Of a DNA stretch of 64,000 nucleotides, positions 34,119 to 36,646 are shown piece after piece (the stretch's first letter is position 1; each line of letters opens with the position of its first letter). The position numbers and the translations under genes were made by a program. Under the pieces are notes generated by a model. The model was not told the origin of the DNA. It did not search any database and saw only the letters and a list, made by a program, of their open reading frames with translations. Source of the DNA: Escherichia phage UFV-AREG1. The stretch lies in the sequence record KX009778, one strand, 5' to 3'.

Positions 34119-34256
34119 AGTTTTGTGAAAAATTTTTTAAAAAGTTTTGGGGGAATTCTAGGGCAGGGAGGGGCAATTAAAGGATAGGATAATATATTAT
34201 AAAGGATAGAAACTAAATGATGCCTAGAGAGGCCCGGAAAGGCCTAGATACCAAAA

Positions 34257-34280
34257 AGCCCCAACCTTTTGGTCGGGGCT
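34257..34280 (-). terminator. Hairpin terminator downstream of CTS gene; copy 1 of flanking repeat
   Basis: 10-bp stem AGCCCCAACC/GGTCGGGGCT with 4-nt loop and T-run; near-identical copy at 34812..34835. Confidence 0.6.
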
Positions 34281-34287
34281 AAGAATG

Positions 34288-34761
34288 TTATTTGATTTGT
34301 TTAGCAGACCAAATGCGGTCTTTAATAATTTTTTGGATGTCTTCAATATACTCAAGAGAGTGAGCATGTGGGTTATCTTTGAAACTATAAGCACGAGCTA
34401 GCTTTTGGCCTTCAGTTTTGATTACTAAAAGCTCTTTAAGGATAGCTTCATATTTGGAGATAATTCCTTTAACGATATTTTTCTCTTGTGTGACTTTAGG
34501 ATCTGCTTTAGGAGCAGGTTTACCTGAAGCCTTTGCAAAAGCAGCGCCAGTAGCAACTAAACTTTTCCAGGCCATACTAACAGCATTCCCCGTAAATCCT
34601 TCTGCTTTCATGTCGCGAGCAAATTGGAATCGTGATTCATCAGAAGCATCTTTATAAGAATATTTACCCGCGGCAATGGCAGCTTTTGCAACAGCTTGAA
34701 TTTCAGTGCTAGATGCTTCATTTAACACCGCTTCATTTAAAAATTGAGCATATGATTTCAT
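34288..34761 (-). CDS. Head internal protein candidate with CTS-like N-terminus
   Basis: N-terminus MKSYAQFLNEA resembles internal-protein CTS; perfect late promoter TATAAATA 37 nt upstream; Ala/Lys-rich body. Confidence 0.65.
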   Translation of the reverse strand: MKSYAQFLNEAVLNEASSTEIQAVAKAAIAAGKYSYKDASDESRFQFARDMKAEGFTGNAVSMAWKSLVATGAAFAKASGKPAPKADPKVTQEKNIVKGIISKYEAILKELLVIKTEGQKLARAYSFKDNPHAHSLEYIEDIQKIIKDRIWSAKQIK

Positions 34762-34797: not shown

Positions 34798-34805
34798 TAT
34801 TTATA
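34798..34805 (-). promoter_or_regulatory. Late promoter (TATAAATA) for CTS gene 34288..34761
   Basis: Exact TATAAATA on minus strand 37 nt upstream of ATG, immediately after terminator hairpin. Confidence 0.65.
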
Positions 34806-34811
34806 CTAAAA

Positions 34812-34835
34812 AGCCCCAACCTTTCGGTCGGGGCT
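34812..34835 (-). terminator. Hairpin terminator upstream of CTS gene; copy 2 of flanking repeat
   Basis: Same 10-bp stem sequence with loop TTTC and T-run, followed by late promoter. Confidence 0.6.
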
Positions 34836-34887
34836 AAGCCTTGCGGCAACCTTGTCGGGGTTCCACCTGCTAAGGCAAGTGTTTGTA

Positions 34888-35043
34888 CGAAACGCCGGGA
34901 TTCGAACCCGGTTATTAAGCAGTTGACGCTACTCAATATTTTTAAAAGGCCATATCTCGACCATATCCGAACGTTCCGTCAAAAACGCTACTCGGCTTAT
35001 GGCAAAGATATTTCCTCGAATCGATAATTCGGTGCGCCGTTTC
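34888..35043 (-). ncRNA. tRNA-like structured stable RNA (possible homologue of T4 species 1/2 RNA)
   Basis: Minus strand has tRNA-like T-arm CCGGGTTCGAATCCCGG followed by CGTTTCG that can pair with GAAACG about 150 nt upstream; no anticodon arm recognised; boundaries approximate. Confidence 0.35.
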
Positions 35044-35122
35044 TGCTGTGATGTAAGAGGGCATCAATAAACGCAAAGATTATTAACGCAATTCCTTACT
35101 CAGGGAACATCAGTCCGACGAC

Positions 35123-35677
35123 TTACCGGTAGCGACCCGGTTTCTCATTTGGTATTTCAAATTGTGTAGATTTAGTATCTAATTTTTTAACTATGGAACT
35201 TATGTCATGAAAGAAAAACCATTCGCCATTTATATGGTCCTGATTATAAATGCTGTGCATATATTTTTCAAGTTCTACTGCATCCTGGGAATATCTAAAT
35301 GATACTATTTTAAAACTTTTAAACGGTGAAAATGTATTTGCTGTTATAACTCTAACATCAGGTTCTATACTTCTTCCTATTTTATAATAATTAGGATTTG
35401 TAGTATCTACCATTATGTATACGAAAGCCTGTCGATAGCTTTTTTCTATATCAAATTCATCTTTAAATTTCAAAAGATTTAGGGCGGCAGTCCTACAAAA
35501 TACTTTCCATTTTGACAAGCGTTTAGCTTTAGTCATAGAAAAGAATTTTTTCTTATCTGTTATTTTAAGAAAAGCAACATTTTCAATTAGTTCTTGTGTT
35601 ATTTCAAAATTACCATGGTATATTAATCCAGCTTTTATAGCCAAATTAATTTGGTCCCAGTCTACATCACTTCTCAT
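35123..35677 (-). CDS. T5orf172/GIY-YIG-like domain protein inside the RNA gene cluster
   Basis: 184-aa ORF; VYIMVDTTNPNYYKIGRSIEPDVR resembles GIY-YIG-related T5orf172 signature. Confidence 0.55.
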   Translation of the reverse strand: MRSDVDWDQINLAIKAGLIYHGNFEITQELIENVAFLKITDKKKFFSMTKAKRLSKWKVFCRTAALNLLKFKDEFDIEKSYRQAFVYIMVDTTNPNYYKIGRSIEPDVRVITANTFSPFKSFKIVSFRYSQDAVELEKYMHSIYNQDHINGEWFFFHDISSIVKKLDTKSTQFEIPNEKPGRYR

Positions 35678-35698
35678 AATATTATTCTCTCAATAATT

Positions 35699-35775
35699 TG
35701 GCCAGGGTGAAAGGATTCTAACCTTTAACCTGCGGTTTAGAGGACCGCTACTCTATACAATTGAGTTACACCCCG
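35699..35775 (-). tRNA. tRNA-Arg (anticodon UCU), CCA encoded
   Basis: Hand-folded cloverleaf: acceptor CGGGGTG/CACCCTG, D-stem ACTC/GAGT, anticodon stem GCGGT/ACCGC with loop CCUCUAA, T-arm AAAGG-TTAGAAT-CCTTT; position 33 is C, which is atypical. Confidence 0.6.
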
Positions 35776-35901
35776 TAATTAGTTCACAGCAATACCTACT
35801 CCAACAATCAAGATGTCTTCACACGAAATTAAGAGAAAAGTGATCAGTTCAACCCTTATAATCGCGTCAAGTAGATATTAATGTGACAACTGTCACAAGT
35901 T

Positions 35902-35976
35902 TGGCGGACATGCATGGATTCGAACCATGGACCAATTGATTAACAGTCAACTGCTCTACCACTGAGCTACACATCC
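35902..35976 (-). tRNA. tRNA-Asn (anticodon GUU), CCA encoded
   Basis: Hand-folded: GGATGTG acceptor, TAGCTCAGTGGTAGAGC D-arm, anticodon loop CUGUUAA, T-loop GGTTCGAATCC. Confidence 0.7.
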
Positions 35977-35980
35977 AAAT

Positions 35981-36067
35981 TGGTGGGGAGTGATGGAGTC
36001 GAACCACCCGAGTCGCAATGACAATGGATTTACAGTCCACACCGCTACCTCTACGGGATAACTCCCC
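35981..36067 (-). tRNA. tRNA-Tyr (anticodon GUA), long variable arm, CCA encoded
   Basis: Hand-folded: anticodon arm GTGGA-CUGUAAA-TCCAT, 87 nt with long variable arm typical of bacterial tRNA-Tyr. Confidence 0.65.
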
Positions 36068-36076
36068 AAATTAATT

Positions 36077-36153
36077 TGGTGACCCAGACCAGATTTGAAC
36101 TGGTAACCTTTCCCTTATGAGGGGACTGCTGCTAACCATTGAGCTACAGGGCC
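36077..36153 (-). tRNA. tRNA with CAU anticodon (Ile2 or Met), CCA encoded
   Basis: Hand-folded: acceptor GGCCCTG, anticodon loop CUCAUAA, T-arm ACCAG-TTCAAAT-CTGGT. Confidence 0.65.
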
Positions 36154-36154
36154 T

Positions 36155-36230
36155 TGGTGCTGATTGACGGAATCGAACCGCCGACATCCTCATTACAAGT
36201 GAGGTGCTCTACCTACTGAGCTAAATCAGC
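36155..36230 (-). tRNA. tRNA-Thr (anticodon UGU), CCA encoded
   Basis: Minus strand GCTGATTTAGCTCAGTAGGTAGAGCACCTCACTTGTAATGAGG...GGTTCGATTCC...CACCA; matches recalled T4 tRNA-Thr. Confidence 0.85.
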
Positions 36231-36232
36231 AA

Positions 36233-36319
36233 CGGAGGCGATAGGATTTGAACCTATGAGTCGCCGGAGCGACTGCCGGTTTTCAAGACCGGTGCATTAA
36301 ACCACTCTGCCACGCCTCC
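36233..36319 (-). tRNA. tRNA-Ser (anticodon UGA), type II, CCA not encoded
   Basis: Hand-folded: acceptor GGAGGCG, anticodon arm CCGGT-CUUGAAA-ACCGG, long variable arm, T-loop GGTTCAAATCC. Confidence 0.8.
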
Positions 36320-36321
36320 AG

Positions 36322-36395
36322 TCTCCATACAAGGATTTGAACCTTGGACCTCCTGATCCCAAATCAGGCGCTCTACCAAACTGAGCTACACGGAG
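36322..36395 (-). tRNA. tRNA-Pro (anticodon UGG), CCA not encoded
   Basis: Hand-folded: CTCCGTG acceptor, D-arm TAGCTCAGTTTGGTAGAGC, anticodon loop UUUGGGA, T-loop GGTTCAAATCC. Confidence 0.8.
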
Positions 36396-36405
36396 TAAAT
36401 TAAAT

Positions 36406-36479
<74 letters not shown>

Positions 36480-36485
36480 AAACTT

Positions 36486-36572
36486 TGGTACGAGAAGTGG
36501 GACTCGAACCCACAAGGAAATCATTCCGCAGCATTTTAAGTGCTGTGCCTTTACCAATTTGACCATTCTCGC
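36486..36572 (-). tRNA. tRNA-Leu (anticodon UAA), type II, CCA encoded
   Basis: Hand-folded: GCGAGAA acceptor, anticodon arm CAGCA-CUUAAAA-TGCTG, long variable arm, T-loop GGGTTCGAGTCCC. Confidence 0.8.
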
Positions 36573-36573
36573 G

Positions 36574-36646
36574 CTGGGAATAAAGGACTCGAACCTTTGC
36601 ATCTAGCAGTCAAAGTGCTATGCCTTACCAACTTGGCTAATTCCCA
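36574..36646 (-). tRNA. tRNA-Gln (anticodon UUG), CCA not encoded
   Basis: Hand-folded: TGGGAAT/ATTCCCA acceptor, anticodon arm TAGCA-CUUUGAC-TGCTA, T-loop AAAGGTTCGAGTCCTTT; abuts tRNA-Leu with 1-nt spacer. Confidence 0.8.

Follow-up and report, generated by a model that had tools for sequence, protein, structure and literature searches.

The window analysed here is a 64,000-nucleotide (nt) stretch of Escherichia phage UFV-AREG1 (sequence record KX009778), a T4-like coliphage of the genus Tequatrovirus, and our subject is a minus-strand open reading frame (ORF; 35123..35677) of 184 amino acids (aa) with an ATG start, whose product we label a T5 ORF172-type (T5orf172/MUG113, GIY-YIG-like) putative homing endonuclease. 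The ORF follows a cluster of ten minus-strand transfer RNA (tRNA) genes (35699..36646) detected by ARAGORN, with Rfam in agreement: tRNAs Gln, Leu, Gly, Pro, Ser, Thr, Met/Ile(CAU), Tyr and Asn at 35902..36646 and, as the final gene, a tRNA-Arg(UCU) at 35699..35775 (Rfam, 59 bits), an allele that we call Arg*. The start codon of the ORF (35677) lies 21 nt past the CCA end of tRNA-Arg, behind a 21-nt leader, AATTATTGAGAGAATAATATT (35678..35698, minus strand), which contains the Shine-Dalgarno-like motif GAGAG; a comparison across lineages found leaders of this type in relatives of the ORF as well. Beyond the ORF lie homologues of two stable RNAs on the same strand, rnaD (species 2; ~35031..35148) and rnaC (species 1; ~34886..35024), both located by aligning the window with the T4 and Aplg8 annotations, and the rnaC/rnaD region showed 97.5% alignment identity to that of T4. 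An intrinsic terminator at 34812..34835 (minus strand; terminator scan and Aplg8 annotation) closes this tRNA/stable-RNA transcription unit. The ORF finder, ARAGORN and the rnaD alignment agree in setting the ORF between the tRNA cluster and a stable RNA, where an earlier note, drawn up from the letters of this DNA alone, had put it.

The 3' end of the ORF runs into the neighbouring RNA gene. Proteins of relatives end in ..F-x-[IL]-P followed by one or two residues (IP[LVT]), just ahead of a read-through tail in the window protein; the natural stop codon has been lost here, and likewise in phage VR7, and the frame runs on for eight codons (NEKPGRYR). These closing codons and the stop (35123..35149, minus strand), delimited by junction alignment with T4, REP1, Aplg8, VR7 and ESh27, are encoded within rnaD, the stop itself falling at 35123-35125, 26 nt into that gene. 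The ORF/rnaD joint sits at ATACCA, and in T4 the 3' end of tRNA-Arg directly abuts rnaD in the junction alignment. Because ATACCA is common to the Ile-Pro codons of the family and to the 3' end of the T4-type tRNA-Arg, the sequence suggests that this arrangement arose by a microhomology-mediated joint.

The resemblance of the protein to the T5orf172/GIY-YIG family, first noticed as a motif in the translation, was borne out by profile searches. Two overlapping Pfam families matched residues 85-155 above their gathering cut-offs, MUG113 (PF13455; expect value (E)=2.7e-9, 37.9 bits, cut-off 22.3) and T5orf172 (PF10544; E=3.4e-6, 27.9 bits, cut-off 20), and both domains were also present in precomputed annotation of all homologues. 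The canonical GIY-YIG profile, PF01541, stayed below threshold on the window protein (E=0.12, 13.1 bits, cut-off 22.6). PHROG 5032, a family of unknown function, matched the protein over its full length (residues 1-176, E=2e-59), and ORF homologues were labelled merely 'hypothetical protein' in every matching record inspected. The motif FVYIM...YYKIGRS...R corresponds to residues 85-109, and the motif set is complete in the window protein: Y87, Y98-K99-I100-G101, R109, E137, H141 and G151-E152-W153-F154. Motif positions are 81-99% conserved in a 165-sequence alignment, with Y87, K99, G101, R109, E137 and E152 retained in 162-163 of the 165 family sequences, W153 in 156 and H141 in 133; the order of the conserved residues matches that of the GIY, YIG, Arg and Glu elements.

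An AlphaFold2 model built from 15 sequences (predicted local distance difference test, 92.1; predicted template modelling score, 0.86) has four helices at the N-terminus (residues 7-73) and then a beta-beta-alpha-beta-alpha unit (residues 84-170). A GIY-YIG-like alpha/beta fold, whose absence together with that of nuclease activity the earlier note had named as grounds for dropping its proposal, is thus predicted for this protein. The C-terminal T5orf172/MUG113 domain (codons 84-170; 35168..35428, minus strand) is on this model presumably a divergent GIY-YIG nuclease domain that would do the cutting. When the model was compared to the PDB with Foldseek, no match fell below E=0.6, and the best match and several others were GIY-YIG proteins; a PDB sequence search with two family profiles returned nothing relevant. 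The N-terminal domain (codons 1-82; 35432..35677, minus strand), delimited from AlphaFold2 models, conservation and isoelectric point, is basic (isoelectric point 9.5) and carries F-x-I-T and AALNLLK-x-K elements conserved across 38 divergent members, T5.069 of phage T5 included; it is presumed to be a nucleic-acid recognition module. The protein belongs to a full-length two-domain subfamily, as the tblastn match to T5 covers residues 14-170 and the 38-sequence alignment shows both domains. The ratio of nonsynonymous to synonymous substitution rates (dN/dS) was 0.13 relative to VR7 and 0.12 relative to ESh27, phages of two other genera, and on these comparisons the protein is under purifying selection with its function kept.

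The literature groups T5orf172 as a GIY-YIG subfamily whose members are nucleases or putative homing endonucleases (PMC8263062; PMC10448857). In the phage ICP1 nuclease Odn, an N-terminal DNA-binding domain precedes a C-terminal T5orf172 domain, and the glutamate that corresponds to the conserved one here, predicted to be catalytic, has been mutated (E180A; PMC8263062); dependence of a T5orf172-class activity on a conserved glutamate is also cited in PMC10448857. By residue conservation and by analogy with published Odn (PMC8263062), the window protein would be a Mg2+-dependent endonuclease whose activity requires the conserved Arg and Glu. PADLOC returned only weak domain-level matches, to PD-Lambda-1 and PDC-S57, and a role as a defence system was rejected on that account. 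Taken by itself, the narrower statement that this is a T5orf172-family nuclease-like gene can be made with high confidence.

The gene is sporadically distributed. Compared to the ~900-1000 records that share the surrounding locus, the ORF protein was found by tblastn at ≥90% identity in just 14 phage records, which represent eight phages of the Tequatrovirus type and three Gapriverviruses, a few of them entered twice; in three Mosigviruses the identity of the protein is 78%. In the tRNA region, the window is 94-97% identical to REP2/REP3, LF82-9, BCH953P2, sutha and teqskov. The LF82-9 record (PV660452.1, L016) has a Mosigvirus taxonomy line, and yet its tRNA locus has all ten tRNA genes and agrees at 95-99% with the Tequatrovirus window; it could be a mislabel or a mosaic genome.

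Homology to ORF-less relatives breaks at 35145/35153 and picks up again at 35785 (BLAST), and the block replaced relative to ORF-less Tequatroviruses was set at 35146..35784 (minus strand) from the BLAST breakpoints, junction sequences and per-segment identities. The place of the ORF plus tRNA-Arg block is taken by tRNA-His and tRNA-Arg in REP1, by these two genes and a 116-aa ORF of no relation in Aplg8, and by segB and tRNA-Arg in T4. Among five carriers, the block is 98.9-99.4% identical, compared to 58-97% for the flanking segments. The segment at 34808-35776, which spans Arg*, the ORF, rnaD and rnaC, is 93.6% identical to Gaprivervirus VR7; the VR7 neighbours trna.3/trna.4 are 81% identical to the window and its other flanks are unalignable. 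The GC content of the ORF is 29.7%, relative to 35% for the window. Judged by these identities, the cassette has been transferred between the genera Tequatrovirus and Gaprivervirus.

Several further features of the region were observed alongside. No tRNA-His gene was detected by ARAGORN in the window, either at 35776-35901 or elsewhere, and none was annotated or detected in the carrier relatives inspected; ORF-less relatives have tRNA-His between the 126-bp Asn-Arg spacer and tRNA-Arg, and gain of the cassette seems to have cost the phage this tRNA gene. REP1, a sister isolate of carriers REP2 and REP3, is without the ORF. It bears a different, 160-aa gene (L009 2084-2566) that is annotated as a putative homing endonuclease, has no Pfam match and lies between tRNA-Ile(CAU) and tRNA-Ser, the usual place of tRNA-Thr; because REP1 bears this separate gene, the Tequatrovirus tRNA cluster hosts at least three different nuclease-like insertions. 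At the other end of the unit, a 36-nt direct repeat (94% identical) with the rnaC terminator hairpin occurs at 34248-34283 and 34803-34838 of the window. The repeats enclose a 157-aa ORF (34288-34761, minus strand; PHROG 2280, function unknown) that T4 lacks at this position. The arrangement resembles a second inserted module with a copy of the terminator at each end.

The tRNA that travels with the ORF is itself unusual. Arg* is only ~65% identical to the tRNA-Arg of ORF-less Tequatroviruses and, at ≥97.5% identity, is confined to the 14 ORF-carrying records. Its anticodon loop, CCUCUAA, has C33 at a position where U33 is near-universal in tRNAs; its T-loop is GGTTAGAATCC (A56) and its D-loop, AATTGTATA, lacks the usual GG, a pair of changes that may be a 19-56 covariation. 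Of the ten tRNAs, Arg* alone lacks GTTC[AG]A and thus alone departs from the published GGTTCRANTCC consensus of SegB. ORF-less Gapriverviruses such as VR20 have a tRNA-Arg that is 83% similar to Arg*, and because VR20 has this tRNA together with another ORF in the slot, the Arg* lineage looks, by sequence, native to the Gaprivervirus group. We considered whether the T-loop GGTTAGAATCC was an ORF-linked self-immunity change and rejected this, as ORF-less VR20 shares the T-loop but has U33; only C33 is carrier-specific.

Empty and filled versions of an insertion site were found in Klebsiella phages. In the Jiaodavirus Kpn6N, tRNA-Arg and tRNA-Thr are separated by a 10-nt spacer, AATTTAAATT, and in KpV477 a 528-bp insert comprising leader and ORF lies within this spacer, bounded by the 5-nt repeat ATTTA. 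The tRNA-Arg genes of these two phages are near-identical (96-98%), and the filled site occurs in 4 of 191 Jiaodavirus-related records. A scan of IMG/VR for further loci yielded three, apparently from phages VR26, PS2 and Muldoon. Overall, sporadic presence, discrete insertion, an element more conserved than its flanks and signs of horizontal transfer, which are traits of free-standing homing genes, were found for this family.

Residence in a tRNA cluster proved to be common to every two-domain relative examined, T5 ORF172 included. Most family ORFs begin 15-23 nt past a tRNA and terminate inside the next one. The upstream gene is tRNA-Arg(UCU), at a distance of 15-21 nt, in seven lineages (the window, VR7, KpV477, X20, PS2 and the metagenomic contigs L025 and L026); elsewhere it is tRNA-Met (ESh27), tRNA-Tyr (Aeromonas phage AS-gz) or tRNA-Cys (T5), and in the T5-like phages My1 and phiR2-01 it is the 3' end of the ORF that overlaps tRNA-Arg(UCU). 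The T5 relative, T5.069 (172 aa), lies between tRNA-Cys and tRNA-Asn, aligned with residues 14-170 of the window protein and appears to be the namesake of the T5orf172 family; the VR7 annotation names its homologue 'BF23 ORF172c'. One T5orf172-domain protein, P0015, was excluded from the two-domain family, as it shares only that domain; no tRNA occurs near its gene, which adjoins an HNH gene.

In 8 of 10 tabulated loci, and in phiR2-01 as well, the reading frame runs 10-33 nt into the following RNA gene (a tRNA or rnaD) before it reaches its stop codon. This codon is often the TAG that the downstream tRNA carries at positions 8-10 (TAGCTCA), or a TAG of the D-arm; the tRNA stretches that supply the stop in relatives are L006 2525-2534, L013 1827-1836, L008 2969-2992, L014 1996-2022 and L012 2014-2046. 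Because the stop sits inside the next tRNA, the C-terminal tails of these proteins are hypervariable translations of tRNA sequence, as in My1, where the tail ...AQLDRAT is encoded by the tRNA-Arg D-arm, GCTCAATTGGACAGAGCA. The tRNA-Arg partners divide into two or more groups with only ~55% identity between them, and the Jiaodavirus partner is the resident allele. Thus, the association is with tRNA-Arg(UCU) loci generally and not with one co-travelling allele.

The layout also bears on expression. A terminator scan detected none between the tRNAs and the terminator at 34812..34835, and sigma-70-like sites that might serve as a promoter for the ORF itself were not above shuffled expectation. Since no terminator separates the tRNAs from the ORF, it lies inside the tRNA precursor transcript and is most likely translated from it. 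In the window (35640-35702, minus strand), pairing is possible between CCAAAUUAUU, made up of the tRNA CCA end and the leader, and AAUUAAUUUGG, codons 9-12 of the ORF; such a hairpin would enclose the ribosome-binding site, as one does in segB. This pairing had z = -1.9 in the window and -1.2 in VR7, a similar pairing was seen in T5, and the overall range of -1.9 to -1.0 is weak; in KpV477 the pairing is absent. Control of segB by processing of the tRNA-Arg precursor has been proposed by Brok-Volchanskaya et al. (PMC2330249).

We interpret the ORF as a free-standing homing-endonuclease gene residing in phage tRNA clusters, a reading to which we assign a probability of about 60%. Its product would be a small two-domain site-specific DNA endonuclease in which the N-terminal domain recognises the target and the T5orf172 domain cuts. 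During mixed infection, the enzyme would cut the tRNA region of a co-infecting relative that is without the gene, the likeliest site being the tRNA-Arg(UCU) gene or the sequence next to it, and recombinational repair would then copy the ORF and its flanks into the cut genome, co-converting Arg* and rnaD/rnaC. By analogy with T4 SegB, with which it shares no recognisable sequence similarity, the gene most likely spreads both itself and the neighbouring tRNA gene between phages. It would be transcribed as part of the tRNA precursor, and 5' processing of the downstream RNA would sever the mRNA from its stop codon and hold the level of nuclease low, given that the stop codon belongs to the next RNA gene.

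Several points weigh against this interpretation. No cleavage site was identified, the profile comparison with the SegB family was insignificant, and neither Pfam nor the PDB yielded a relative of the N-terminal domain, which has no recognisable DNA-binding fold. The difference between the window and ORF-less Tequatroviruses is a replacement and not a simple insertion. Strong cross-genus purifying selection exceeds the need of a purely selfish gene and could mean that the phage benefits. Finally, ordinary recombination at conserved RNA genes could move the cassette too, because unrelated small ORFs occupy the tRNA-Arg/rnaD slot of other phages.

The alternatives differ in how much of this evidence they explain. 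The slot just mentioned (window 35149-35698) is hypervariable among T4-like phages: it holds nothing in T4 and REP1, a 116-aa ORF (MKGNVYLVVH...) in Aplg8, an unrelated 79-aa ORF in VR20, and both the 116-aa ORF and a T5orf172 gene in Mosigvirus ESh27 (slots in relatives: L001 1951-2314; L004 3042-3386; L021 1595-1834), and these 116-aa and 79-aa ORFs have no Pfam assignment. Together with the high conservation of the flanking RNA genes, which would support recombination, such contents are what one would expect if the ORF were a passenger of this slot, moved solely by general homologous recombination and carrying a nuclease-like domain that is irrelevant to its spread. That account leaves unexplained the recurrence of the family in tRNA clusters of unrelated phage families and beside different tRNAs, the precise insertion into a 10-nt spacer and the upkeep of conserved nuclease-motif residues, and we regard it as improbable. 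Even less credit goes to the idea that the substrate is RNA and that the protein trims or processes its own tRNA precursor or cleaves host tRNA. The strict confinement of the gene to tRNA transcription units, 15-23 nt past a tRNA 3' end and overlapping the next tRNA, would suit such a role, as would the strong link to tRNA-Arg(UCU) and a basic N-terminal domain of unknown fold; however, every GIY-YIG relative with a solved structure matching the model is a DNA nuclease, published T5orf172 activity acts on DNA (PMC8263062), the same tRNAs are processed without the gene in most close relatives, and filled/empty polymorphism and cross-genus transfer are traits of a mobile DNA element.

A better-placed competitor, although still an unlikely one, is that the ORF encodes an accessory factor, kept because it benefits the phage, and is not a selfish homing gene. 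The product could be a nuclease that helps the tRNA locus to recombine or amplify or that counters tRNA-targeting host defences, as recently shown for SegB, or it could be a domesticated, DNA-binding-only T5orf172 protein like the satellite repressor CapR, which is cited as a domesticated T5orf172 relative (PMC10448857). A dN/dS of ~0.12 over long divergence, the presence of both domains, conserved over their full length, in Straboviridae and Demerecviridae alike and the constant location within tRNA operons are consistent with a benefit of this kind, and SegB itself amplifies tRNA and anti-defence loci (PMC13096335). A prevalence of ~1% of Tequatroviruses and of 4/191 among Jiaodavirus-related records is, however, unlike that of a generally useful gene, and the intact conserved residues argue against a role in binding only. 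An accessory role and homing are not mutually exclusive, as SegB has both.

A broader proposal is that the T5 ORF172-like clade as a whole consists of dedicated tRNA-locus homing nucleases that are convergent with SegB, target the surroundings of tRNA-Arg(UCU), have their expression gated by tRNA-borrowed stops and shuttle tRNA alleles; we offer this tentatively and hold it to be possible but doubtful. If it were true, the borrowed stop would often be the U8-A9-G10 'TAG' of the downstream tRNA, so that tRNA maturation would gate the nuclease, and tRNA alleles such as Arg* would be shuttled between T4-like genera and between Straboviridae and Demerecviridae. The clade would then drive turnover of the phage tRNA repertoire and might also help phages to escape tRNA-targeting defences. 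Phage tRNA clusters matter for evading tRNA-cleaving defences, and SegB remodels such clusters. A second nuclease family tied to tRNA-Arg(UCU) would offer a testable system for the exchange of tRNA gene sets and for the coupling of nuclease expression to tRNA processing.

The T5orf172 class itself is known, with putative homing endonucleases described for ICP1, T5-like and other phages (PMC10448857) and the nuclease Odn/Gp88 (PMC8263062). Added here are the family-wide anatomy of ORFs wedged between tRNAs, the linkage to tRNA-Arg(UCU) and a cross-genus cassette with an odd tRNA-Arg allele; in the literature searched, no paper combined T5orf172 with discussion of residence in tRNA clusters. Published T5orf172 putative homing endonucleases share with the window protein their Pfam family, domain order, conserved Arg and Glu and a sporadic, recombination-associated distribution (PMC10448857, PMC8263062). 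They mostly carry CapR/DUF723/DUF4397 zinc-finger or RepA_N domains, whereas the window protein has a four-helix N-terminal domain instead, and no CapR/DUF723/DUF4397 zinc-finger repeat was found beside its T5orf172 domain. Their genes lie near structural, terminase, replication or nucleotide-metabolism genes, in contrast to the tRNA cluster occupied by the window gene. T4 is stated to have no T5orf172 genes (PMC10448857); since the window, a Tequatrovirus, has one, some Tequatroviruses do carry such a gene, and T4-type coliphages can thus harbour T5orf172-type nuclease genes. The T5 tRNA region that holds T5.069 also has the endonucleases F-TflI/II/IV interspersed among its tRNA genes, and their expression has reportedly been proposed to be limited by tRNA precursor processing (PMC2330249). 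These are larger proteins of the HNH superfamily and are not homologous to the window ORF.

A further close parallel is T4 SegB, which the earlier note had also invoked. Its gene does lie in the homologous tRNA cluster, as a free-standing nuclease gene in the same tRNA/stable-RNA transcription unit, and the position of the window ORF is analogous, although segB lies one slot farther upstream, the order being Ile-segB-Arg in T4 and Arg-ORF-rnaD in the window. The architectures differ, as had been anticipated: SegB has an N-terminal canonical GIY-YIG domain and a sub-threshold NUMOD3 match (E=0.14), while the window protein has the reverse order, with a helical N-terminal domain ahead of the nuclease-like C-terminal one, its motif at residues 85-109 and no NUMOD match. 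When the family alignment was compared by hhalign to SegB and to a 24-sequence SegB alignment, the probability was 0.1-0.6% (E ≥ 0.1). Trimmed domains at relaxed settings were likewise insignificant against SegB, and the greedy alignment, co-linear at GIY, YIG and Glu, carries no statistical weight. Because there was no significant profile similarity, the resemblance to SegB is one of analogy or very distant superfamily kinship and not of orthology. Activity, a 27-bp target in the T-arm/CCA region and homing have been demonstrated for SegB, whereas for the window protein all of these are predictions. Like the window ORF, segB is absent from many relatives, and it co-transfers neighbouring tRNA genes (PMC2330249, PMC13096335). 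Its reading frame stops right at the 5' boundary of the tRNA that follows, where tRNA maturation is expected to remove the stop codon (PMC2330249). Nucleases of the SegB type and of the T5 ORF172 type, between which we detected no sequence similarity, have both settled in this phage tRNA operon, and with the same anatomy.

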